In this document: positions 3,129-46,630 of the stretch, piece by piece
Numbering within the stretch: position 1 is the stretch's first letter
How the letters are laid out: the number at the start of each line of letters is the position of its first letter
Source of the DNA: Escherichia phage Tls
Strand: one strand, 5' to 3'
Sequence record: AY308796.1
Length of the DNA stretch: 49,902 nt
Made by a program: the position numbers and the translations under genes
Notes under the pieces: model-generated
What the model was told of the DNA's origin: nothing
The model's database searches: none
Seen by the model: only the letters and a program-made list of their open reading frames with translations

Positions 3129-3131
3129 TTG

Positions 3132-3695
3132 ATGTTTACGATCAACTTGTGGGGAAGGGATTATGTTAATCCCTATGTTGCGACAAAACAGCGTTTCGTT
3201 ATTTTCGACCTAGACGGCACATTGTCAAATGGTGAGCACCGCTTGCACCTGTTGCCAACAGTTGATTTGCATCTTACTGAAAGCTGGAGTGAGTTTAATC
3301 GCGCCGCAAAGGATGATTTACCATTCATGGATAACATAGCCGTTTGCAATGCCATGTTTGATGCCGGATACCTGGTTATCATCCTAACTGGTCGGAGTGA
3401 TGAAGTTGAGGCAGAAACGCGAGCATGGTTAGCTGAAAACGGCGTTTCTTTCGATTGGCTGATTATGCGCCGCGCGGAGGACAACCGGAAAGATACCGTG
3501 ATCAAAGAGGAAGTTTTACGGACTATCGGACTTGATCGCATTGTCGCATGTTGGGATGACTCACCAAACGTTATTTCACACCTGCGCGGCCTGGGCTTGA
3601 CTGTTTACCAGGTCATTGAATACGGCGAGCAGTTACACGATCACTTAAAGTCTCACGGCGTGGAGGAATTGAGCAATGACAGCAAAGTTAATTGA
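3132..3695 (+). CDS. HAD-family phosphatase resembling the 3'-phosphatase domain of T4 polynucleotide kinase
   Basis: HAD motif I FDLDGTL; downstream blocks ILTGR, RKDTVIKEE, WDDSPNV resemble Pnk phosphatase domain (from memory, not searched). Confidence 0.65.
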   Translation: MFTINLWGRDYVNPYVATKQRFVIFDLDGTLSNGEHRLHLLPTVDLHLTESWSEFNRAAKDDLPFMDNIAVCNAMFDAGYLVIILTGRSDEVEAETRAWLAENGVSFDWLIMRRAEDNRKDTVIKEEVLRTIGLDRIVACWDDSPNVISHLRGLGLTVYQVIEYGEQLHDHLKSHGVEELSNDSKVN

Positions 3696-4392: not shown

Positions 4393-4571
4393 TGCTTGAT
4401 AACCGTAAAGAGACTGAAAAAACGATCAGCTATCTGCGTGAGCTTGCCGATAGACTGGAAAACGGCGAAGTTGGATTAAATGATATTACTATTGAAGCGC
4501 GTAATATTTGTTGGAACGTTGAAGAAGAAACATTAACACTACAAACTGTTAAGGCGGTAAACAATGGCTAA
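4389..4571 (+). CDS. hypothetical protein (60 aa)
   Basis: ATGA start-stop overlap with upstream gene. Confidence 0.45.
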   Translation: MMLDNRKETEKTISYLRELADRLENGEVGLNDITIEARNICWNVEEETLTLQTVKAVNNG

Positions 4572-5139
4572 AATTATCATCCTAAATGCGCCTCCTGGTG
4601 CTGGTAAAGACACTATCGGCAAGATGATTTCTTTCTATTCGCCTGGTGAGCAATGCCGAATCATTAGCTTTAAAGAGCCAATGTTTGATATTGCATTGGC
4701 TATCCTGGGTAAAGAGAACTATCAGCGTTTCATGTTGGCTTATAATGACAGAGGGAAAAAAGAAAGGCCGCAAACATTCCTGATGGGTATGTCACCGCGT
4801 GAGTTCATGATCTGGATTAGCGAGGATGTAATCAAACCTAAATTCGGCAAGGATTATTTCGGCGTAAGGTTTAACCAGAAAGTAAAAGAGTGTGATGCTC
4901 CTGTTGTTTGCACTGATGGTGGTTTTCCAGATGAAATTATCGCTCTAATCAATGCTGGTAATGAGGTGAAGCTATGCCGCTTGCATCGCGACGGGTTCAC
5001 GTTTGCAGGTGATAGCCGCAACTACATTCGAATCAACCCCTATTACCATAAAAACGGATATAGCGAGCACGATTTTTATTTGACCGATAACAAGCCAATG
5101 GGAACCGTTAACACGATTATCAACATGTTCCTAAAATAG
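4564..5139 (+). CDS. P-loop kinase, dNMP-kinase-like
   Basis: Walker A NAPPGAGKDT near N-terminus, resembling phage deoxynucleotide monophosphate kinases; stop TAG inside next motif. Confidence 0.55.
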   Translation: MAKIIILNAPPGAGKDTIGKMISFYSPGEQCRIISFKEPMFDIALAILGKENYQRFMLAYNDRGKKERPQTFLMGMSPREFMIWISEDVIKPKFGKDYFGVRFNQKVKECDAPVVCTDGGFPDEIIALINAGNEVKLCRLHRDGFTFAGDSRNYIRINPYYHKNGYSEHDFYLTDNKPMGTVNTIINMFLK

Positions 5140-35920: not shown

Positions 35921-37894
35921 ATGATTCCTAACATTGAAAAGCAGATTGCAGATCTGGGAGAGGAAAGAATTAAGGCAATCCAGAAGCGTTTCACGGTTGG
36001 TGAGATTGTCCCGTATGAATACCAATGCGTTGCTTACGCTGAAATTGCAAAGCGCTTGAGCAAGTATGTTGATCCGTTTTTCGTTAAAGCGGCGGTGTCG
36101 GCAGGTAAAACAATCATCTTTGCTATGGTTGCGGCTCAGTGCAGGAAAATGGGATTGAAAGCGTTATTTCTGGCGCGTCAATCTGAAATTGTGGATCAGG
36201 ATTCAAAAGAGATTAGCGCCTTTGGTGTTCCGAATTCCGTTTATTGCGCTGGCCTGAATACCAAAAGCGCTTATTTCCCGATTGTTGTCGGATCGGAAGG
36301 TACTGTAATTGGCGGATTGAATAAGGCGTTAGGTGATTACGTCCCACAGGTTTTAGGTATAGATGAATGTCATCAAGTCAACTGGAATGATATTGTTGAA
36401 GCCGAGGAAAACGGCGAAAGCATAGAGCAGATGATGACGCCGAAAGGTGAACCAGTTGAAGGGAATCCGTTGCTGATTGGTTCAGGCCGCGCACAATACA
36501 CCATTATCATTGCAGAAATGCGCCGCCGTTGTCTTGAGACTTACGGTCATCAGTTGCGTATATTTGGAATGACCGGATCGGAATATCGCGGAATTGAGCC
36601 GATACTTGTCGAAGATAAAAGAATTCCTGGGTTTTGGCGTGAGCAGATCACAAACATTGATACTGATTACCTGGTAAAATTTGGTTCAGTTGTTCCCACT
36701 TATTTTGGCAATGTTGGTGATTTGGGTTACGACTTATCAGAATTTACGCCAGTGCATGAATTTGGCGTTGCTGATTATGACCAGAAGCAATTAAAGGCCA
36801 TGAGTGACAAGATTCACCAATCAGGAACAATGACGCAGAAAATAATGCAGATGGTTCACGAGGTGATGAAAAACCGCTTGTGCGCTCTTGTTACTTGCGC
36901 TGACGAAAGGCACTGCAAAGAGGCGGCGGCGGCGCTTCCGTCTGGCACGAAATATCACATTATTACCGGAAAAACTGGAGAGAAACAGCGGCGCTTATGG
37001 CTTGATGATGCCTATGAAGGGCGAGTGAAATATATTTTCCAGGTTCAGGCGCTAACAACTGGCGTTAACGTTCCGCCGTGGGATACCTCTGTTATTTTGC
37101 GCAAGATCGGAAGTCTTACGCTATTAACTCAGCTTTTGGGTCGTGGTATGCGTCAATTAAAGACTTACCACAAAGAAGTTTTGGGAATGCACAAAACAGA
37201 TCATCTTGTTTTGGACTTTTCCGGCACGATGTTTGAAATGGGTAATTTGTATTTCGATCCAATGCTTGAGCAAGCGCAATTCCAGTTGCGTAAATCGCAG
37301 GATAAAGATCCGAAATTTTGCCCGATTTGCGGAACGGAAAATTCATTCTATGCGCGGCGTTGCATTAATGAGGATGAAAACGGAAATCGTTGTGAGCACT
37401 TTTGGACGTTCCAGGAATGTGAGGATCAGATTGATGAACGTACAAAGAAAGTTATTGTAAAAGGTTGCGGCGCAAAAAATGACGTTGCGGCGCGTGTATG
37501 CCGTTGCTGTAATGTTCAGTTACGAGATCCAAATGATAACTTATCCGGCAAGATGTACCGTAAAAACGATTGGTGCGACGTGTTAGATTTTAATGTGACG
37601 CTGACAAAAAACCAGGCTGGCGTAATATTCTGCTACACGTTGCGTGATAGTGGCGGCGTAGAATTCAGAGCATACGAAAAATATTTCCCTGAATCAGAAC
37701 ACAAGATATGCAAAACGCTTTGGACAAAGGCGGTTAGAACTCACGTTGTAGATCGACAGGCTGCAAACTATATGATCACTTGCCGCAACGCAATTAAGAT
37801 CATGAGTTATGCGGCGCAAATATTGCCACCGAATCGCGTTACGCATCGCAAGAACACAAAGAAAGAAGATTTAATAGCACAGAAGGAATTTTAA
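35921..37894 (+). CDS. SF2 DNA helicase (DEAH-box)
   Basis: Walker A SAGKTII, DEAH box GIDECHQV, C-terminal Cys clusters; 657 aa. Confidence 0.8.
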   Translation: MIPNIEKQIADLGEERIKAIQKRFTVGEIVPYEYQCVAYAEIAKRLSKYVDPFFVKAAVSAGKTIIFAMVAAQCRKMGLKALFLARQSEIVDQDSKEISAFGVPNSVYCAGLNTKSAYFPIVVGSEGTVIGGLNKALGDYVPQVLGIDECHQVNWNDIVEAEENGESIEQMMTPKGEPVEGNPLLIGSGRAQYTIIIAEMRRRCLETYGHQLRIFGMTGSEYRGIEPILVEDKRIPGFWREQITNIDTDYLVKFGSVVPTYFGNVGDLGYDLSEFTPVHEFGVADYDQKQLKAMSDKIHQSGTMTQKIMQMVHEVMKNRLCALVTCADERHCKEAAAALPSGTKYHIITGKTGEKQRRLWLDDAYEGRVKYIFQVQALTTGVNVPPWDTSVILRKIGSLTLLTQLLGRGMRQLKTYHKEVLGMHKTDHLVLDFSGTMFEMGNLYFDPMLEQAQFQLRKSQDKDPKFCPICGTENSFYARRCINEDENGNRCEHFWTFQECEDQIDERTKKVIVKGCGAKNDVAARVCRCCNVQLRDPNDNLSGKMYRKNDWCDVLDFNVTLTKNQAGVIFCYTLRDSGGVEFRAYEKYFPESEHKICKTLWTKAVRTHVVDRQAANYMITCRNAIKIMSYAAQILPPNRVTHRKNTKKEDLIAQKEF

Positions 37895-37895
37895 T

Positions 37896-38303
37896 ATGGT
37901 TACTGATAAAGGTGATTATCTGGAGTATTACGACAAGTCAGATCCAGACGATAGAAAGGAGGAATCGCACCAGGTTGATTCTTATTCATGGCTAACATAT
38001 GAGTTTCCCATGTGGCTTGTTTGGCACACTAAAAACGAGGGGAAGAAAACCATAGGCACAGCCGTAAAGGATCAGCAAGCGGGTGTGAAGAAGGGAGTTA
38101 GCGACATTCTAATCCTGACTGGTTTTATTGGCTGCAAGTATTCATTTATAGCCATTGAGCTTAAACGCGCCAACAAGAAAGGCACGAAGGTAAGCGACGA
38201 ACAAAAGGAATTCTTGCGACGTGTCAGAGAGTGCGGAGGATTTGCCGCCGTATGCTATGGAGTAGAGCAAGTAAAATTGGCTATCGCAGACGCTACAAAA
38301 TAG
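37896..38303 (+). CDS. VRR-NUC domain nuclease
   Basis: Pattern DILILTG...IAIELKRANKKGTKVSDEQKEFLRRV...GGFAAVCYG typical of VRR-NUC (D..E.K core); stop TAG inside next motif. Confidence 0.6.
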   Translation: MVTDKGDYLEYYDKSDPDDRKEESHQVDSYSWLTYEFPMWLVWHTKNEGKKTIGTAVKDQQAGVKKGVSDILILTGFIGCKYSFIAIELKRANKKGTKVSDEQKEFLRRVRECGGFAAVCYGVEQVKLAIADATK

Positions 38304-38343
38304 CACTTTTTGTTAAAACAGGCGCAACGGAATGCGCCATAAT
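38298..38343 (+). promoter_or_regulatory. motif promoter: AAATAGCACTTTTTGTTAAAAC + 18 nt + CATAAT
   Basis: Motif 38298-38319; hairpin ggcgca/tgcgcc; -10 CATAAT 38338-38343. Confidence 0.55.
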
Positions 38344-38374
38344 GCACCCATCAGAACGAAACGGAGAATTAACC

Positions 38375-38653
38375 ATGAAAAAGATGTTATCAGTAGTTGC
38401 TTTATCACTTGCTCTTGTCGGTTGCATGGATAAACCCAAAACATATATTTGCGGAAATGAAGCGTTTGAGGTTACAAGCGACTATATGAAAGTTGTGCAA
38501 GGCAAAAGCACAGGCGTTGTAATGGATAATATCAGCAAAAATCAATATAAGTTGTTTACGCCAATTGGAACGGCTTTCTACACAGTTAATGAAAACACAA
38601 TTGATATTAAAGTTGGCGTTTATCAGAACACTCTAACTTGCGAGGTAAAATAA
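38375..38653 (+). CDS. small lipoprotein (92 aa); candidate superinfection-exclusion protein
   Basis: Signal peptide MKKMLSVVALSLALVGC with lipobox LVGC; SD ggagaa; ORF-track start 38231 is an extension. Confidence 0.6.
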   Translation: MKKMLSVVALSLALVGCMDKPKTYICGNEAFEVTSDYMKVVQGKSTGVVMDNISKNQYKLFTPIGTAFYTVNENTIDIKVGVYQNTLTCEVK

Positions 38654-38654
38654 A

Positions 38655-39395
38655 ATGGCTAAAGATATTCAGGACAAAACCACAATTGACACTTTCGCAC
38701 AGGAAATGGATTTTCATGAACTGCAACACGGCAGATATTCAGATATTGCGTTGCGTTCAGGTGGTCATTATCAGCCAGTTAGAGAAAACCCAATGTTCAA
38801 GGTTAGCGGCAACCGTTATGCAGGAAGTAAAACGCCGGACGTTGTGCGCGACTTGTGGGAAACTCCAGATGAAATTGTTGAATACCTTGCTGAACGTTAC
38901 GGCAAATATGATCTTGACGCAGCAGCAACGGAAGATAATAAAAAATGCGATAAATTTTACAGCAAAGAAACAAACTGCTTAAAGCGTTGGTGGGGTAGCA
39001 ATAAGCACGTTTGGTTAAATCCACCATACAGCAATCCAGATCCATTTATCAAAAAAGCAATTGAGCAGATGGAACACGGAAACCAGATTGATATTTTACT
39101 TCCGGCTGATAATTCAACTGCATGGTTTAGTGACGCACAAAAACACGCGGCAGAAATTATCTGGATTACTGGTGAAACCTGGAAGGATGAAGAAGGTCGC
39201 GAATATTCCCGAACTGGTCGAGTAGCGTTTATTTCTGGCATGACAGGTGAGCCAGTTAGCGGAAACAATAAAGGTAGTGTAATTTTTATCATGCGCCAAT
39301 TGGAAGAAGGTGAGCAACAGCAAACGCACTATGTGAAGATTAGCGACATTTGCCCTTCCGTAAAAAATAAACGAGCCAAAGCGCGGAGTATTTAA
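38655..39395 (+). CDS. dam: DNA N6-adenine methyltransferase (Dam-like)
   Basis: Catalytic motif WLNPPYS (motif IV D/NPPY); 246 aa. Confidence 0.75.
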   Translation: MAKDIQDKTTIDTFAQEMDFHELQHGRYSDIALRSGGHYQPVRENPMFKVSGNRYAGSKTPDVVRDLWETPDEIVEYLAERYGKYDLDAAATEDNKKCDKFYSKETNCLKRWWGSNKHVWLNPPYSNPDPFIKKAIEQMEHGNQIDILLPADNSTAWFSDAQKHAAEIIWITGETWKDEEGREYSRTGRVAFISGMTGEPVSGNNKGSVIFIMRQLEEGEQQQTHYVKISDICPSVKNKRAKARSI

Positions 39396-39396
39396 A

Positions 39397-39627
39397 ATGA
39401 GCATTCGATTAGCCGATCACATGAAATGGGATTTATTTGTCGGTATGACAATTCGCTTACTTGATAAGCATGGTTATAACGCTGATAAAATGGAGTTGAT
39501 AAACTGCCTGGATATGACATTTGACGAAATCAAAGTTGCTCCTTTGTACATGTGGGAAAGAAAAATTGAGCACGACCTGATACAATACAAACGCAGAGAG
39601 GGCGCACGATTTTTTAATGTGAAATAG
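39397..39627 (+). CDS. hypothetical protein (76 aa)
   Basis: ATG 1 nt after Dam stop; stop TAG inside next motif. Confidence 0.5.
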   Translation: MSIRLADHMKWDLFVGMTIRLLDKHGYNADKMELINCLDMTFDEIKVAPLYMWERKIEHDLIQYKRREGARFFNVK

Positions 39628-39667
39628 CACTTTTTGTTAAAACCCGCTACGGCGGGTTTTGTATTAT
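39622..39667 (+). promoter_or_regulatory. motif promoter: AAATAGCACTTTTTGTTAAAAC + terminator-like hairpin + TATTAT
   Basis: Motif 39622-39643; hairpin cccgc tac ggcggg TTTT (39644-39660); -10-like TATTAT 39662-39667. Confidence 0.5.
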
Positions 39668-39698
39668 GTTCTTAACGGAAAACAAGAGGATTTCAAAA

Positions 39699-39863
39699 AT
39701 GAAAATCGTAAACGTCGAATACTTCAAAGATGCGCAATGGCTGGCTAAAGAATCATTATTTATGCTTGATCGCAAAAATCCAAAGGTTATTGCACAAATA
39801 CTTTGGAATGACGCAATGGAGTTACTTAAAAAGGCTTACGGTTATGAAAGTGACAAAAGGTAA
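39699..39863 (+). CDS. hypothetical protein (54 aa)
   Basis: In-frame ATG with SD aagagga. Confidence 0.45.
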   Translation: MKIVNVEYFKDAQWLAKESLFMLDRKNPKVIAQILWNDAMELLKKAYGYESDKR

Positions 39864-40086
39864 AAAGGAAACTTGGGAGTTAGCGAAAAAAGGCGGTCTT
39901 GATGAGGGGATCGCCAAAATAGCGCAATATTTCGATATCAAAGACGTGTGCGTTATTGTCGGTAATGAAATGGCATATGTGGAAGAAAAGCCGCGCAAGG
40001 TTCATCGCGTTCCGGCAATTCCGACAACAATCGACTATAAAGAAGTTATTAACAAAACTAAAGAGCAAAAGAAATATTTCAAATGA
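39844..40086 (+). CDS. hypothetical protein (80 aa)
   Basis: In-frame ATG; ORF-track start is an upstream extension. Confidence 0.4.
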   Translation: MKVTKGKKETWELAKKGGLDEGIAKIAQYFDIKDVCVIVGNEMAYVEEKPRKVHRVPAIPTTIDYKEVINKTKEQKKYFK

Positions 40087-40159
40087 GATACATTTACGTT
40101 ATTATATTTCCTCCTGTTATAGCTTGGGTTATTGTTTATTTTTTAGTTATGGGGTTGTC

Positions 40160-40636
40160 ATGAACTATAATGATTTATTTTCATATGAAAATGGAGCGCT
40201 TACAAGAAAGGTGGCGAAATCTAAAAGATGTAGGATTGGCGATCCTGTTGGATGGATCAACGGAAATGGTTACTTGCAAACAAGTGTATCAGGTAAAAAT
40301 GTTCTTGTTCATCGTATAATATGGGAAATGCACAACGGGAAAATTCCAAATGGAATGGAAATTGATCATATAAATCACGATAGAACTGATAACAGGATTG
40401 AAAATCTAAGAATTGTTAATCACAAAGATAATCATAAAAACGTATCAATGCAATCAAATAATAAAACTGGGGTTTGTGGGGTCTGCTTTATAGAAAGATG
40501 CAATAAGTTCAGAGCATCAATAAAGGTTGACGGGGTAACTATATATTTGGGATACTTTAGCAGCATTGATGATGCTAAAAATGCAAGAAAGAAAGCAAAT
40601 GATAGATTTAATTTTCACAAAAACCACGGAGTTTAA
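40160..40636 (+). CDS. HNH homing endonuclease with AP2-like DNA-binding domain
   Basis: HNH core EIDHINHDRTDNRIENLRIVNHKDNHKN plus C-terminal GV.GV......KF.A.I AP2-like region; SD ggggt; paralogue of 47608-48120. Confidence 0.8.
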   Translation: MNYNDLFSYENGALTRKVAKSKRCRIGDPVGWINGNGYLQTSVSGKNVLVHRIIWEMHNGKIPNGMEIDHINHDRTDNRIENLRIVNHKDNHKNVSMQSNNKTGVCGVCFIERCNKFRASIKVDGVTIYLGYFSSIDDAKNARKKANDRFNFHKNHGV

Positions 40637-40639
40637 TAA

Positions 40640-41755
40640 ATGACTGCTAAAAAAATTACGGATGAGCAATTGATTGCAGAGCGCGAAGCGGGTTTAAAGT
40701 TGCGAGAGATTGCTGAAAAGTACGGAATGAGCTTACGCCAGGTTGAGCACCGTCACAGCAAATTGGCTAAGCGTGGCGAAATCTCAACTATCGGATCACC
40801 TGGCTTTGCGGTAATTGGTGAATCGCAGCTTAAACGTGCTAATGGTGAGGTTGTAATTACTTGGACCAAAACGCATAAGGATAAAGAGCAATTAGAAGCA
40901 ATTATGCAAGCGGCTATGGATGCATTTTCGGAAGAAGTGCCGCGCATTAAGCCGCAACCGGAAAAAATTACTGATTACTCGCAAACGCTGGCGCTATATC
41001 CGATCTTTGATATTCACATTGGCGCAATGGCTCATAAGCATGAAAGCGGTGAGAATTACGACACGGCAACGGCGGAAAACGTCATGAATGAGTTTTTCGA
41101 TTATGCAGTTGATAAAGCGCCCAATAGCGAAAAGGCTGTATTGCTGATTGGTGGTGATATGATTCACAGTGACGGTCTGGAGGCTGTAACACCTGCAAGC
41201 GGTCACGTTTTGGATCAAGATAGCCGTTACGCAAAACTTGTTTATGTTGCTATCCGCGCCACGCGTCGAGCAGTAAGCAGAATGCTGGAAAAACATAAAG
41301 AGGTTGAATTGCAGATCATTGAAGGTAATCACGACCAATCAGGAATGATCTGGCTGCGTGCTGCAATGGCGGCGGCGTATGAGAATGAGCCACGCGTAAA
41401 GGTTGATGTTTCTCCGCGTGTCGTGCATCACACGCAATATGGAAAAACGTTCCTGGCTTATCATCATGGTCACACTGTACGCAAGCCAGAAACGCTTTTA
41501 ATGATGTGTGCAGCGGATTGGCGGGAAGATTTCGGAAACTCCAATTCAATGTATGCGCATGTAGGGCATTGGCATCACCAGACTGTTACAGAAACGAGCC
41601 TTGGCATTGTTGAGGTGCATAGCACTATGGCGGCTAAAGATGCTTATGCCGCGCGTGGCGGTTGGCGTTCACGCCGTCGAGCGGCGGTAATTATCTATGA
41701 TAAGGAATATGGCGAGATAGGGCGCTTTATGTTCTACCCTGAAATGATTGCATAA
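40640..41755 (+). CDS. HTH-domain plus calcineurin-like metallophosphoesterase fusion protein
   Basis: N-terminal HTH-like LKLREIAEKYGMSLRQV; phosphoesterase motifs DIHIG, GGDMIHSD, EGNHDQ, GHWHH. Confidence 0.6.
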   Translation: MTAKKITDEQLIAEREAGLKLREIAEKYGMSLRQVEHRHSKLAKRGEISTIGSPGFAVIGESQLKRANGEVVITWTKTHKDKEQLEAIMQAAMDAFSEEVPRIKPQPEKITDYSQTLALYPIFDIHIGAMAHKHESGENYDTATAENVMNEFFDYAVDKAPNSEKAVLLIGGDMIHSDGLEAVTPASGHVLDQDSRYAKLVYVAIRATRRAVSRMLEKHKEVELQIIEGNHDQSGMIWLRAAMAAAYENEPRVKVDVSPRVVHHTQYGKTFLAYHHGHTVRKPETLLMMCAADWREDFGNSNSMYAHVGHWHHQTVTETSLGIVEVHSTMAAKDAYAARGGWRSRRRAAVIIYDKEYGEIGRFMFYPEMIA

Positions 41756-41772
41756 TTAAATTATCACCTAAA

Positions 41773-41802
41773 AAGGCTAGCTAAATGCTAGCCTTTTTTT
41801 GT
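41773..41802 (+). terminator. rho-independent terminator (ggctagc taaat gctagcc ttttttt)
   Basis: Read directly. Confidence 0.7.
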
Positions 41803-41867
41803 TTTTGTCGTTAACATAATCAGACTATTTTTGACATTGACATTTTAATTAAACTGAGGATCAGATC

Positions 41868-42092
41868 ATGAGGGACTTTCTTTTAATGGCGCAAAACTCT
41901 TTCGGAGGTGCAACGGTAGTTGGAACTTTTACTGGTGAGTTTTTGCTTGCACTTGCTACGTTTATTTTGTTCGCTATTTTCGGCTGTTGGGGCGCATGGC
42001 TGAAATGGCGTGATAGTAAAGCGATCCGAGAGGCTTTAGATTCAGGGGATTTAAAAACGGCGCTTAATCTACGGCAGAAAGAGAGGGTGTAA
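41868..42092 (+). CDS. holin (probable pinholin)
   Basis: 74 aa with TM segments and charged C-terminus; immediately upstream of SAR endolysin; SD gagga. Confidence 0.6.
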
Positions 42093-42586
42093 TGACAATC
42101 AAGAAAGGTATAGCCGCCACCGTCACAGGGGCGGCTTTAATGTTGGCATCGCCTTTGATTGAAGAAATTGAAGGCGTAAAGTATAAGCCTTACAAGGATA
42201 TTGCTGGTATCTGGACTGTATGCCACGGCATCACAGGAAATGATGTGATTCTTGGAAAGGAATATACCAGGCGAGAGTGTGACGCGCTATTAGCAAAGCA
42301 TATGAAAGTAGCGGCTGACGCTGTTGATAAAGCTGTTAAGGTTGATATTCCTATTTCTATGCGAGCGGCTTTGTACTCATTCACATTCAACGCCGGAACA
42401 GGGGCATTCAGGAAATCAACCATGTTGAAGAAGATCAATAATGGTGATCTGTATGGTGGTTGTGGCGAGCTTTGGAACTGGACATATTACCGGAACCCGA
42501 AAACGGGCAAAAAGGAAAAATCAAAGGGATTGAAGAATCGCCGCGCTGTTGAATATAAATATTGTGTAATGGATCTGAATAAATGA
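42092..42586 (+). CDS. SAR endolysin (T4-type lysozyme, GH24-like)
   Basis: N-terminal signal-anchor-release segment [18 protein letters not shown]; catalytic E/D/T pattern [21 protein letters not shown]. Confidence 0.75.
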
Positions 42587-42972
42587 AAAGAAAATTACTG
42601 GCTATTATGATGTGCATTGCTCTTTCTGGTTGTTCAGCTTCAAGCGTGTTACCTGGTCTGATTGGTAGCAAGCCTGATATAACGGCACAGGCTGGAGCGG
42701 AGAATGTGAAACAGACTGTTGGTGTAACCGCAAAGCAGGATACATCAAGCAAGCAGGAAACCACATTCAAAGAATCGGAAGTTGGTCAAGTTGACACATC
42801 CAATAAAAAGCAGGTGAGTACCTCAAGCATCAAGGCTGATAACATTACGGCGGAAAGAATAGAAATTCGCAATAATGACGGCCTTAACGTTCCGGCAATC
42901 GCAATGGGTATATTGATGTTCATTGCTGGTATGCTGGCAGGTTGGACGCTAAAACGTAATAAGGCGGCATAA
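42583..42972 (+). CDS. unimolecular spanin (u-spanin)
   Basis: N-terminal lipoprotein signal with lipobox LSGC and C-terminal TM anchor [17 protein letters not shown]; overlaps endolysin stop. Confidence 0.65.
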
Positions 42973-42989
42973 GCCGCCTTTTCTTTTAC
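42961..42989 (+). terminator. rho-independent terminator containing the spanin stop codon
   Basis: Stem aaggcggc/gccgcctt followed by TTCTTTT. Confidence 0.55.
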
Positions 42990-43123
42990 TCAAATTTTCT
43001 AACATGAATTAGCAATTCACCATCATGATTTGTCAGTTGATGCTCTTGATCCAAAAATGCTCGCATATCGCTGTAAAGCAACAGCATTAACGCATAGACA
43101 AAATCATCATGCGGAATTTGCAT
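42986..43123 (-). CDS. small hypothetical protein (45 aa; ORF track extends to 43183)
   Basis: In-frame ATG 17 nt before upstream stop; the longer 65-aa version would overlap 43107-43499 by 77 nt in another frame. Confidence 0.3.
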   Translation of the reverse strand: MQIPHDDFVYALMLLLYSDMRAFLDQEHQLTNHDGELLIHVRKFE

Positions 43124-43499
43124 TGCTGAACTTTCTTTCAAAATAAGATCTATCAAATGCTGGCTTGCTGAATAATTCTTCATCGCTCATTTTCTCAATG
43201 TTCATCATCTCCCACACATAACGATTGGAATCACCTTCCAGGCTATGCAACTCAAAATTAAACGGCCTTTTCATCTTGTTTTTGCACCAGTACACGCAAT
43301 GAACGCCGTCAAGATATCCATAACCCATCATTCGCGCTATAAACTCTTTGCTTGAGCTTGAAGCGAAATAGCGGGGCGTTACCCCCGCATTTTTGGCGAG
43401 CCTTTCACATTCACGGTGACGGAATATAAATCTTGCTAACTCCTGGCGGTTGAATTTCTCGCGAGACTCGCAAAAGCGATACAGATCTAATAAGAACAT
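43107..43499 (-). CDS. hypothetical protein (130 aa)
   Basis: ATG with SD ggggt. Confidence 0.5.
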   Translation of the reverse strand: MFLLDLYRFCESREKFNRQELARFIFRHRECERLAKNAGVTPRYFASSSSKEFIARMMGYGYLDGVHCVYWCKNKMKRPFNFELHSLEGDSNRYVWEMMNIEKMSDEELFSKPAFDRSYFERKFSNANSA

Positions 43500-43501
43500 G
43501 A

Positions 43502-45082
43502 TTACCCCATTAACGCCGGATTTACATAAACAAATTTACCAACGCTGCAAACATAATTCTTTTCTTCAAGCATTGGCAATAATTGTTCCTCAATTCGTTT
43601 CATCACGCCTGATTGACCTGTAAACGGCTTAACCTTACGCGCACTTTCATAGATAGCTCTTGCATTGGTAACGCCTTTATTTTGACGTGAGATCTTAATG
43701 ATGATTTCAATTAACTTGCTCATTTCGGCATCATCGCCAGCGTGACCGGAAGCATTCGCGGCGTTGATATATGTTTTGCTTAATTCGCTGAACATCACCA
43801 AAGCCTCTTGCATTGTCTCAACTTCAATTTCTCGCGACTTTTGCGGCGTACCGTTTGGATTAAACCAATTGCGGATCGTGTGCAATACTGACGCAATGCG
43901 GATCACTTGCTTATCCATTTTACCCAAAGCACCACGCAACATTGTATGTGAATATTTCCCGCCGTCTGCTAAATCTGGCTCTAATTGCTGGCGAGCAATA
44001 TTAAGAACACGCATTGCAGACCGTGACGGCTTCAATACAACATTTTGCTCAGTCATGATGTTATGAATCAACTGGAAATATTGCGCCTTTAATTCTTTAT
44101 CAACTGGCGTGTAATCAAGATCACCATTTTCATCAATAAATACACGCTCGCCTAACATTGTTTTTTCACGTACAAGCAAGAAACGTTCACTAACACCGAT
44201 ACCCCGCGCCCCTGCATCCATGATCCCTTTTATCGTTTCATCCTGGGCAATTACGCTCATGCAGCCCAACGCAACAAAACTCATATTGTTTTCAGAGTTG
44301 GCGCGAGCTATTGAAACGTGTCCGGCGTCCCATGCTTTTAGAACCAATTCGCTGTTAGTCTTGCGATCACTATTAGCGTAAGTCAATCCGAGTAAGCTGT
44401 TGATGCTTGTTGCTTCATCGGAAATGACAGCAAAGTTACCCTGGCGATTGTTGATCTTTGCTAACCCTTCCGGCGTGGTGTCTGATACCGGAAAAACGAT
44501 ATCGCACATTTTTTCTAACTTTTCCTCTAATTCCTCCTTTTCCTCAAACAACGCCGCTAACTCAGTGCCGGAACGTTCAGCTTTCAATTCCTTTTCAACG
44601 CCTTTTAATTTAGCTGCGATCTTCTTTCGCTCTTTCTTGCGTTGTTCGTTGATTCGCTCAACTTCACAGACCATTGGCGCAATAGCAAGGCTGTTGATTG
44701 CTGATTTACCAGTTGACGGAGGCTGACTGGTTACAACATAAAGCGCAGTTGGTTGTTCAGTGCCGTGGTACTCAACCTGGAAACGTCCAACCATAGCGGC
44801 GGAAACGCAACCAATGAAATGCATATAGGCCGATGATTCAGGAAATTGAACAGATTGCGCAATGCTACGTGACAGTTTACCCACAACATCAACATCATTA
44901 CCCAAAGAGATCACAGGATAGCGGTCATTAGCGCCGTTGATATCCTTTACAGGTTCCCAAAAGCTGGACGATTGGCGGTATCCGTTAGACTGAATAGCAA
45001 CGCGAAGCGGCGATGTTCCCTGCGATTCTGCAATGGCTATAACTTGTTGAGGTGTCAATTTGTTGGTGTCAAAGTCAAACAT
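43502..45082 (-). CDS. large P-loop NTPase-like protein of unknown function (526 aa)
   Basis: Walker A-like QPPSTGKSA; Lys/Glu-rich coiled-coil insert; perfect SD aaggag; first gene after a motif promoter. Confidence 0.6.
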   Translation of the reverse strand: MFDFDTNKLTPQQVIAIAESQGTSPLRVAIQSNGYRQSSSFWEPVKDINGANDRYPVISLGNDVDVVGKLSRSIAQSVQFPESSAYMHFIGCVSAAMVGRFQVEYHGTEQPTALYVVTSQPPSTGKSAINSLAIAPMVCEVERINEQRKKERKKIAAKLKGVEKELKAERSGTELAALFEEKEELEEKLEKMCDIVFPVSDTTPEGLAKINNRQGNFAVISDEATSINSLLGLTYANSDRKTNSELVLKAWDAGHVSIARANSENNMSFVALGCMSVIAQDETIKGIMDAGARGIGVSERFLLVREKTMLGERVFIDENGDLDYTPVDKELKAQYFQLIHNIMTEQNVVLKPSRSAMRVLNIARQQLEPDLADGGKYSHTMLRGALGKMDKQVIRIASVLHTIRNWFNPNGTPQKSREIEVETMQEALVMFSELSKTYINAANASGHAGDDAEMSKLIEIIIKISRQNKGVTNARAIYESARKVKPFTGQSGVMKRIEEQLLPMLEEKNYVCSVGKFVYVNPALMG

Positions 45083-45786: not shown

Positions 45787-45832
45787 ATTATGCCGGATAC
45801 GTGATCCGGCGTTTTAACAAAAAGTGCTATTT
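45787..45832 (-). promoter_or_regulatory. motif promoter (minus): AAATAGCACTTTTTGTTAAAAC + 18 nt + CATAAT
   Basis: Motif reverse complement 45811-45832; hairpin gccggat/atccggc; -10 at 45787-45792. Confidence 0.55.
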
Positions 45833-46522
45833 CTGATTTGCCAGGCATACAGCAAGCGCAAAGCCGCGCGGAGTGAGTGAGCGGATCAGCTTTGTTCGCT
45901 TAGACTTACCTCCTAGCTTTTGCCAGCCTGGATTGTTGTTCCCTGTTGGCAATACTGCGTTTGTATCCGGCATCACAAAACCGTTACCCGTCCAAAGGCA
46001 AGTTTTTTTGGTGTACGCATCGCGAGCAGGAATGATTTCAGGAAAGTGAGGATGTTTATCATCTTCCGGCAACAGACCGCCAAACGCGCAAGGATGAAAT
46101 ATAAAATCGGGTTGCCGCCACATCGACGACAGGACGCTAACAGGATTCTCGATCACGTATGGCACATTGAACCAATCCGCAATTTCAGCCGCAATCTTGC
46201 ATGTTGAAACTGCCTTATCCTGGAATAGCGGATCACGTTCACGCTTTGCGGAAAAGTGACGCGAACCGCTAACAGCTAAATCAGTGCATGGAGGAAACGC
46301 GATCACAAAATCAGGCTTGCCGTAAACCTCATTGCGAGCCTTAAAGCTGAAATCTGAATCAATCCAAACGTTCACATACTCAATGTTGGGATGACTTACG
46401 CGCACTGAATGGTAATCACCATGATCGGCATCATCATAATTGAAACAGATTACTTTGTGACCACGTTCAGCCCACGGCAACGCATCATAACCGGAACCGC
46501 TAAAAAGAGAAAAAACTAACAT
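45827..46522 (-). CDS. compact DNA cytosine-5 methyltransferase-like protein
   Basis: Motif I-like FSLFSGSGYD, motif IV-like FPPCTDLAVSG (Pro-Cys), motif VI-like YVIENP; ATG 46522 with SD aaagga; ORF-track start 46606 is an extension. Confidence 0.55.
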   Translation of the reverse strand: MLVFSLFSGSGYDALPWAERGHKVICFNYDDADHGDYHSVRVSHPNIEYVNVWIDSDFSFKARNEVYGKPDFVIAFPPCTDLAVSGSRHFSAKRERDPLFQDKAVSTCKIAAEIADWFNVPYVIENPVSVLSSMWRQPDFIFHPCAFGGLLPEDDKHPHFPEIIPARDAYTKKTCLWTGNGFVMPDTNAVLPTGNNNPGWQKLGGKSKRTKLIRSLTPRGFALAVCLANQK

Positions 46523-46630
46523 ACTTAAATCCTTTGTGTATGGCCTTGTGAGGCGTTTTGTTTGTGGTGTCGCAACTGTATTGGCTACGGCCTGAAATCG
46601 CGCCATAATGCGAAACAGGCCGCTATTTTT

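Follow-up and report, generated by a model that had tools for sequence, protein, structure and literature searches.

What does the metallophosphoesterase at the end of the replication operon of Escherichia phage TLS act upon? The window analysed here is the whole of sequence record AY308796.1 (49,902 nucleotides), and the gene in question, gp66, lies at positions 40640 to 41755. Its product joins a helix-turn-helix (HTH) to a calcineurin-like metallophosphoesterase (MPE). Phages T1 and TLS break down the genome of their host and build the nucleotides into their own DNA (PMC11447400, citing Roberts and Drexler 1981 and Christensen et al. 1981), and the authors of that report were 'unable to identify' the gene product behind the degradation. 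Here we describe the architecture, family and gene neighbourhoods of gp66. In general terms, the protein is probably a nuclease that acts on DNA. More tentatively, as a proposal that falls somewhat short of an even chance, gp66 may be a stand-alone metal-dependent nuclease that degrades the host chromosome, the T1/TLS counterpart of T5 A1. It fits the gap in the T1 and TLS account because it is a core gene, is repeatedly linked to enzymes that handle deoxynucleoside monophosphates (dNMPs), and mirrors T5 A1.

The gene, its domains and an intact catalytic site are established. The structure was predicted with AlphaFold2 from a 50-sequence alignment, giving a mean predicted local distance difference test (pLDDT) of 92.4 and a predicted template modelling score (pTM) of 0.81. 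Conservation was scored over 147 representatives of mutual identity <=50%. The features of the gene are as follows.

40640-41755, + strand: coding sequence of TLS gp66, HTH-metallophosphoesterase, 371 amino acids, ATG start (open reading frame list)
40661-40771, + strand: N-terminal three-helix HTH, residues 8-44 (predicted helices 8-16, 21-28 and 32-44, pLDDT 94-96)
40808-40936, + strand: family-specific beta-hairpin (residues 57-79) and helix (82-99) before the catalytic core (predicted secondary structure)
40976-41752, + strand: metallophosphoesterase core, residues 113-371 (motif I D124/H126, II D173 with H176, III N230/H231, IV H276, V H310/H312)

The core carries all five motifs of the superfamily (DxH, GD, GNH(D/E), H and GHxH), which together supply seven metal ligands and the catalytic histidine. 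They are found as DIHIG at residues 124-128, GGDMIHSD at 171-178, EGNHDQ at 228-233, HHGH at 275-278 and GHWHH at 309-313. D124, H126, D173, N230, H231, H276 and H312 are each retained in 146-147 of the 147 representatives, and H310 in 140. Ligand conservation on this scale exceeds chance expectation by far. The strong purifying selection on the metal ligands argues that the proteins of this family (PHROG 704) are active enzymes, as opposed to degenerate scaffolds such as the eukaryotic polymerase B-subunits. The model shows the four-layer alpha/beta-beta/alpha sandwich of the superfamily and nothing beyond the core, so that no capping domain is predicted. Between motifs II and III lies an insert of the form VTPxSGHxLDxDxR (residues 183-196) that is specific to the family, with T184, D192 and R196 as its family-specific invariants (T184 in 147/147).

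The N-terminal extension that holds the HTH is present in 142/147 representatives; a Campylobacter phage homologue is without it. In TLS gp66 itself the HTH matches only HTH_23 in Pfam (E 0.005), and a phmmer search against solved structures returned just one marginal match, to an IscR-type HTH. Relatives match Sigma70_r4_2 (E 1.5e-9), GerE (2.4e-8) and HTH_1. A linker of lower predicted confidence (residues 45-56) separates the HTH from the hairpin, and relatives carry insertions at this point. Two hairpin residues are near-invariant, W75 (138/147) and G69 (134/147). The preliminary description of this DNA, made from the letters and the reading frames, had given the frame exactly as it stands, with a product of 371 residues. 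Its HTH-like N-terminus is borne out by the confident helices and by the matches among relatives. The four MPE motifs it listed are all present, with HHGH as a fifth, and the structure prediction on which it had staked the assignment contains both the fold and the metal ligands.

The family is already known, as are the gene and its place in the MPE superfamily, and its annotation is inconsistent. TLS gp66 is a full-length member of phrog_704 (E 1.6e-150, residues 4-370 against profile positions 2-389 of 390); phrog_704 and phrog_284 are the only PHROGs that match it. The Pfam models Metallophos and Metallophos_2 do not match the TLS protein at E up to 1, and they match 9-10 of 50 relatives weakly (best E 5.8e-5). 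An exhaustive HMMER search returned 4,613 cluster representatives at E <=0.001 and 1,003 at <=1e-30, and nearly all of the best 150 matches listed are 370-420 residues long. By tblastn the gene is present in 2,035 phage records. Distant homologues from Campylobacter, Vibrio and Rhodobacter phages also match phrog_704. By megablast, the segment 38000-44000 is about 95% identical to phages of the genus Tlsvirus (Drexlerviridae), of which TLS is the type; Salmonella phage FSL SP-126 and Citrobacter phage Stevie are examples. The gp72 protein of FSL SP-126 is 98.9% identical to gp66 and is labelled 'DNA repair exonuclease'; 'phosphoesterase', 'DNA polymerase II small subunit', 'oxidoreductase' and 'winged-helix protein' occur among thousands of other family records. 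The T1 counterpart of gp66 may be 'gene 2.5' of the old T1 genetic map. In the published re-annotation of TLS the gene is named 'proof-reading exonuclease' and lies directly upstream of holin Gp67 (PMC11447400). A block of exonuclease, holin, endolysin and spanin is found in 508/522 Drexlerviridae, and the genes that most commonly follow the exonuclease directly are a 'polynucleotide kinase' (Pnk) and a dNMP kinase (2026 pangenome study, PMC13164509). The PHROG 704 gene is a core gene of the Drexlerviridae and not variable accessory cargo. What is new here is the definition of the architecture (HTH, hairpin, MPE and specific insert, lacking a capping domain or an ATPase partner), the recognition of a module of MPE, dNMP phosphatase and dNMP kinase that crosses lineages, and the proposal of gp66 as the candidate host-DNA nuclease of T1 and TLS.

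Also in the databases is GenBank OR786094, 'Streptococcus phage MBBL140' with host S. agalactiae, which is about 95% identical over 38000-44000 and has an MPE protein 97% identical. The host label looks doubtful, and contamination or mislabelling is possible.

A nuclease-like fold is established for gp66, and in the model the nearest solved folds are those of DNA nucleases. The fold comparison figures for the gp66 model are 16.1 for PolD DP1, 14.9 for T. maritima Mre11, 14.6 for S. aureus SbcD, 14.1 for MJ0936, 13.5 for LpxH, 12.3 for Rv0805, 9.8 for the P. putida MPE and 9.6 for PP5, and Foldseek places MjMre11-DNA and DP1 first. Protein phosphatases lie far lower. By sequence comparison the family is remote from every solved structure. 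Identity between gp66 and DP1 is 14%. The family profile matches Mre11 in the PDB at an insignificant E of 0.26-0.77, and its MPE matches there are likewise insignificant. The ligase-associated MPE/PdeM proteins give weak matches below threshold (E 0.00096), and hhalign of the family against E. coli SbcD gives E 0.015 and a probability of 3%. Among three references the hhalign scores against the gp66 profile are 32.5 for T5 A1, 24.7 for E. coli SbcD and 17.1 for lambda NinI. Neither NCBIfam nor PADLOC holds a match to gp66 above cutoff. The comparison by fold and profile that the preliminary description had proposed divides: DP1, Mre11 and SbcD are closest by fold, the sequence match to SbcD is insignificant, and lambda NinI is the weakest of the three profile references.

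The DP1 neighbour raises the reading that gp66 is a 3'-5' proofreading exonuclease recruited to the host replisome as it copies phage DNA. Relatives labelled as polymerase II small subunits, the published name of gp66 itself and the lambdoid homologues that adjoin DnaB would suit such a role. The Z margin of DP1 over Mre11 is small, TLS encodes neither a DP2-like catalytic subunit nor any polymerase, and gp66 has no DP1-type OB-fold domain. Host Pol III already includes a subunit for proofreading, and we know of no precedent for an HTH fused to a proofreader. We consider this role very improbable. Further still from the mark, and scarcely credible, is a Ser/Thr/Tyr protein phosphatase in the manner of lambda NinI, one of the options of the preliminary description. 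The superfamily motifs are shared and lambda-type phages do carry an MPE protein phosphatase. The match to NinI has an E of only 0.12, the PPP motif set (GDxHG, GDxVDRG, GNHE) is not found in gp66, its motif II (GDMIHSD) lacks the phosphate-binding Arg of GDxVDRG, and both the HTH and the gene neighbourhoods suggest a role on nucleic acid.

That gp66 has no partner ATPase is established as well. The preliminary description had noted that no Rad50/SbcC-like gene lies nearby and that gp66 is not an obvious Mre11/SbcD pair; this holds for the whole window. Its large open reading frames can all be assigned a product (terminase, portal, protease, capsid, tape measure, tail tip, tail fibre, two helicases), and each of those with at least 400 residues encodes a terminase, portal, tape-measure, tail-tip, tail-fibre or helicase protein. 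Nor does a Rad50/SbcC gene stand beside any homologue inspected, at several phage and prophage loci. Of the three functions offered in the preliminary description, the DNA-nuclease option alone gains, from the nearest folds and from neighbours that in many lineages act in replication, recombination and nucleotide metabolism. It can be met in two ways that are not exclusive and that overlap, for T4 gp46/47 serves both end processing and host-DNA breakdown. In the main alternative to a host-DNA nuclease, gp66 would be an Mre11/SbcD-like end-processing nuclease that works without Rad50. By clearing blocked ends, hairpins or branched intermediates it would let the recombination-dependent replication driven by RecE/Erf, and the formation of concatemers, go forward; breakdown of host DNA would be incidental or absent. 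Mre11 and SbcD are among its fold neighbours, and genes for a RecE-like exonuclease, Erf, SSB and VRR-NUC lie in or near the gp66 module of TLS. Set against these, gp66 has neither a capping domain nor a Rad50-binding tail, and the sequence relation to Mre11 and SbcD is insignificant (E 0.26 and 0.015).

Gene linkage is established too. For the survey, 80 viral and 78 bacterial loci were fetched, and 162 MPE loci were scanned with home-made hidden Markov models. A dNMP kinase is encoded in 37/162 loci, of which 36 have it on the strand of the MPE gene, 0-3.7 kb downstream. The phosphatase, if there is one, sits between the two, giving the order MPE, phosphatase, kinase. In enterobacterial phages the phosphatase is of HAD type (phrog_415). 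In prophages of alpha- and beta-proteobacteria (Rhizobium, Agrobacterium, Ensifer, Devosia and others) a non-homologous HD enzyme of phrog_318, 'deoxyribonucleoside 5'-monophosphate phosphatase', replaces it. This non-orthologous displacement with kept gene order is the strongest contextual signal, and it is recurrent and not universal. An end-processing role leaves the recurrent phosphatase and kinase, and the displacement, unaccounted for. In unbiased clustering of neighbours at the 78 bacterial loci, recurrence was limited to the dNMP kinase, the HD phosphatase and genes for lysis and packaging; the clustering is noisy, with crude calling of reading frames in GC-rich DNA and small BLAST clusters.

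A HAD gene lies downstream in Webervirus-like Drexlerviridae, in Kagunavirus and in two further loci (L079 and L088). In Kagunavirus K1ind3 the MPE cassette is inserted among tail genes with the HAD gene directly downstream of the MPE, and the TLS homologues of its partners are found at 3195-3668 (57% identity) and 4564-5082 (46%). The phage contig L079 (IMG/VR UViG_2974653390) has a row of FEN-like exonuclease (phrog_107), EndoVII, MPE, HAD, dNMP kinase and ATP-dependent DNA ligase. The proposed pathway partners in TLS are the following.

3129-3695, + strand: Gp09, HAD_PNKP-type phosphatase (Pfam HAD_PNKP, E 6.9e-19; phrog_415, E 5.6e-69)
4564-5139, + strand: Gp14, dNMP kinase (phrog_139, E 5.9e-49)

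The true start codon of Gp09 may lie downstream of 3129. Pfam finds no kinase domain in Gp09 despite its 'polynucleotide kinase' label, and the name is probably wrong for Gp09 and for many phage records, such as the gene after A1 in Vibrio phage D232. A reading of the HAD and P-loop pair as a split Pnkp for 'end healing' was considered and given less weight: the kinase falls in a dNMP-kinase PHROG, the HAD protein shares its PHROG with T5 Dmp, and a dNMP phosphatase of HD type substitutes elsewhere. Linkage to a DNA methyltransferase as a general feature was rejected as Drexlerviridae synteny (27/80 viral against 3/78 genomic loci), although proximity of a methyltransferase could serve self/non-self discrimination by a host-DNA nuclease.

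Neighbours that act on mononucleotides also bring in the reading of gp66 as a small-nucleotide phosphodiesterase or pyrophosphatase. It would act on dNTPs or dNDPs, NAD, Ap4A, or cyclic or oligonucleotide immune signals, and would reshape pools or blunt signalling defence; some known defence systems use calcineurin-type enzymes to hydrolyse NAD or dADP. The DNA-binding HTH is near-universal in the family, the best fold matches are nucleases, the gene is core and not variable anti-defence cargo, PADLOC gives no match, and no linkage to known anti-defence genes was seen. Overall this reading is improbable. For its immune-signal part, which the preliminary description had itself called speculative, no positive evidence emerged, and the conservation in the Drexlerviridae, the DNA-binding domain and the dNMP-handling neighbours tell against it. 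Support falls progressively through the proofreading, small-nucleotide and protein-phosphatase readings.

Further support for a host-DNA nuclease comes from phage T5. T5 A1 is a putative metallophosphatase reported to be necessary and sufficient for host-DNA degradation; it is said to resemble double-strand break (DSB) repair nucleases and polymerase proofreading subunits, and it also governs second-step DNA transfer and binds RNA polymerase (bioRxiv 10.64898/2026.04.02.716235). The T5 operon runs A2 (DNA-binding), A1, dmp, and the order is the same in Vibrio and Klebsiella relatives among the Demerecviridae. T5 Dmp is a 5'-deoxyribonucleotidase, annotated as converting 5'-dNMPs to deoxynucleosides. 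It belongs to phrog_415 (E 1.1e-56), the PHROG of Gp09, and a pairwise BLASTP of the two gives E 5e-6.

A1-like proteins were also seen outside the Demerecviridae, in Agrobacterium phage Atu_ph03 (Autographiviridae), Caulobacter phage Magneto, Flavobacterium elemo phages and Vibrio phage RYC. Their genes often stand among genes of replication or nucleotide metabolism. This distribution differs from what the T5 preprint states.

In the pathway proposed, gp66 would be held on duplex DNA by its N-terminal HTH. Phosphodiester bonds would be hydrolysed at the two-metal site of the MPE core, with H231 as general acid, in a reaction dependent on divalent metal, and unlike Mre11/SbcD the enzyme would need no Rad50-type ATPase. 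The host chromosome would be degraded in this way, and DNA ends would perhaps be processed too. Released 5'-dNMPs would be re-phosphorylated by the dNMP kinase Gp14, and the Dmp-like dNMP phosphatase Gp09 would trim the dNMP pool. TLS has no DNA polymerase gene and carries the dNMP kinase, and the recycled nucleotides would feed the replication of this polymerase-less phage. Four elements of this pathway are inferred: that gp66 acts on DNA, that its target is the host chromosome, that dNMPs pass on to the kinase, and that Gp09 and Gp14 are its partners.

Several observations weigh against gp66 as the host-DNA nuclease. The MPE fold alone leaves the substrate open to choice, literature searches found no functional study of the PHROG 704 family, and the nuclease activity of A1 itself is as yet putative in vitro. 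BLASTP of gp66 against T5 A1 is not significant, nor is HMMER; T5 A1 matches only phrog_1745, a PHROG other than those of gp66; and hhalign of the two families gives E 0.0012 with a probability of just 20% over 220 columns. The kinase is linked in 8/48 lineages at 70% identity, about one sixth. In TLS, Gp09 and Gp14 are not adjacent to gp66 and lie about 12 kb off across the genome ends, and gp66 stands at the end of the replication operon, outside the earliest genes. The reading also demands some means of sparing the phage's own DNA. Some homologues sit in settings where wholesale destruction of host DNA is less expected. In lambdoid E. coli prophages (loci L005/L006 and L019-L031) the order is cI, cro, Lin1244_N, ANT, MPE, DnaB. 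The homologue there is 64-66% identical to gp66 and lies after an ANT/Bro gene and 18 nt upstream of the DnaB-family helicase gene, with no dNMP kinase near the MPE gene in these loci; this temperate setting suits a replication-linked role better than host-DNA destruction. Late and tail operons are the other such setting. In a Chi-like Rhodobacter phage and two similar metagenomic contigs the homologue ends a tail and lysis operon, and in one podovirus-like contig it lies among tail genes.

An end-processing nuclease suits the temperate and late-operon settings better, and its case is helped by neighbours such as EndoVII, FEN-like exonuclease and DNA ligase (L079 and a Campylobacter phage) and DnaB (the lambdoid prophages). 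In Campylobacter phage F361 a homologue without the HTH follows a DNA ligase gene. We nevertheless judge end processing as the sole role unlikely, though it is the rival to be taken most seriously. Elsewhere a Vibrio phage homologue follows an OB-fold gene. Being DNA-metabolic, this setting and those with FEN-like exonuclease, EndoVII, DNA ligase or DnaB speak for the host-DNA nuclease as well. In a lineage of phages of about 44-45 kb the homologue stands just before the terminase genes.

In TLS the rightward replication and recombination operon (35921-41755) ends with gp66 and is closed by a terminator. Its order is SF2 helicase, VRR-NUC, Dam methylase, small reading frames, HNH, gp66. The surrounding features are listed here.

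38655-39395, + strand: Dam-type methyltransferase, about 1.2 kb upstream of gp66 in the same operon
40160-40636, + strand: HNH/AP2-type homing endonuclease gene (phrog_99, E 3.5e-62)
40628-40631, + strand: GGAG ribosome-binding site 8 nt 5' of the gp66 ATG (direct sequence reading)
41770-41808, + strand: intrinsic terminator, hairpin 41770-41798 and T-run (terminator scan, 12-pair stem)
43502-45082, leftward: DUF3987-type helicase of the leftward operon past the spanin gene
45827-46606, leftward: second methyltransferase, in the leftward operon

The stop codon of the HNH gene is at 40634-40636, and the gp66 start codon lies 3 nt beyond it. The terminator hairpin has a fold energy of -18.8 kcal/mol (z = -5.0). 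Past it comes the lysis cassette of holin (start 41868), endolysin and spanin.

The majority of close relatives align to just about 91% of 38000-44000, in 2-3 pieces, which would fit an indel at or near the HNH gene. Between the gp66 terminator and the holin start there is a direct repeat, ttgacattgacatt, at 41810-41867. It is a possible promoter of the lysis cassette, and a consensus promoter scan made no call there. At 42961-42980 a GC-rich hairpin, terminator-like on both strands, lies between the rightward spanin gene and the leftward operon.

T1-like phages have long served as classic models, are notorious for contaminating laboratories and are candidates for use in phage therapy. For the question of how T1 and TLS degrade the host, gp66 offers a single, conserved and easily mutated candidate, linked to the T5 A1 system and to a recurrent three-gene layout for nucleotide recycling. 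The answer bears on generalised transduction by T1, on dNTP supply in polymerase-less phages, on which phages trigger the defence systems that sense host-genome degradation, and on the annotation of thousands of family records and of the HAD neighbour called 'polynucleotide kinase'. A bolder form of the proposal is that gp66 is the long-sought destroyer of the host chromosome in T1 and TLS, both remote homologue and functional equivalent of A1, and that the two jointly define a widespread phage module. We regard this form as possible and on balance doubtful. If it is true, the module would consist of a DNA-tethered MPE DNase, a dNMP phosphatase (HAD or HD) and a dNMP kinase that together turn the host genome into phage nucleotides. 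The enzyme would then also set the frequency of T1 generalised transduction; the degradation-defective mutants of Roberts and Drexler transduce better. The methylated dNMPs that the Metis and PUA-Cal-HAD defences sense as a danger signal would, during infection by T1-like phages, come from this enzyme; the papers on these systems deal with denA of the T-even phages and not with T1-like phages. Should gp66 be a recombination nuclease only, it would be one more example of a class of enzymes already known.

Among the known systems, Mre11, SbcD and T4 gp47 have a capping domain, C-terminal Rad50-binding helices and a Rad50/SbcC partner; gp66 has neither structure and no such partner in its genome, and it has an N-terminal HTH, the hairpin and the VTPxSGHxLDxDxR insert in addition. 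PolD DP1 has an OB-fold domain N-terminal of its phosphodiesterase (PDE) domain and a DP2 partner, and gp66 has neither. Lambda NinI is likewise a phage-encoded two-metal MPE, but of 221 residues, with no HTH and with the lowest profile and fold similarity to gp66. The ligase-associated MPE/PdeM (Pseudomonas putida MPE, PDB 6nvo) is a small stand-alone MPE DNA endonuclease with no ATPase partner that is encoded beside an ATP-dependent DNA ligase, and two gp66 relatives also adjoin such a ligase.

The closest functional analogue appears to be T5 A1, which is also a possible remote relative, with direct homology not established. The two differ in that A1 has 556 residues, a long unrelated N-terminal half and no fused HTH, and the HTH of gp66 has no similarity to T5 A2. 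In a BFVD fold search gp66 returned many viral MPE proteins of 400-500 residues, most of them nameless, among which A1 could not be located by name. The products of host-DNA breakdown are excreted in T5 infection and reused in infection by T1 and TLS. Like gp66, A1 is a putative MPE without a Rad50-type ATPase, and its structural neighbours as reported, DSB-repair nucleases and proofreading subunits, are those of gp66. Where T5 has a separate DNA-binding A2 followed by A1 and Dmp, the gp66 relatives have the HTH fused, and several of them have a Dmp-type HAD protein of the same PHROG downstream. Both families carry 'E(G/S)NHDxxxSxWL' after motif III and a 'G..SW...ITY' strand at the C-terminal end, and in both the distance from motif II to motif III is similar.

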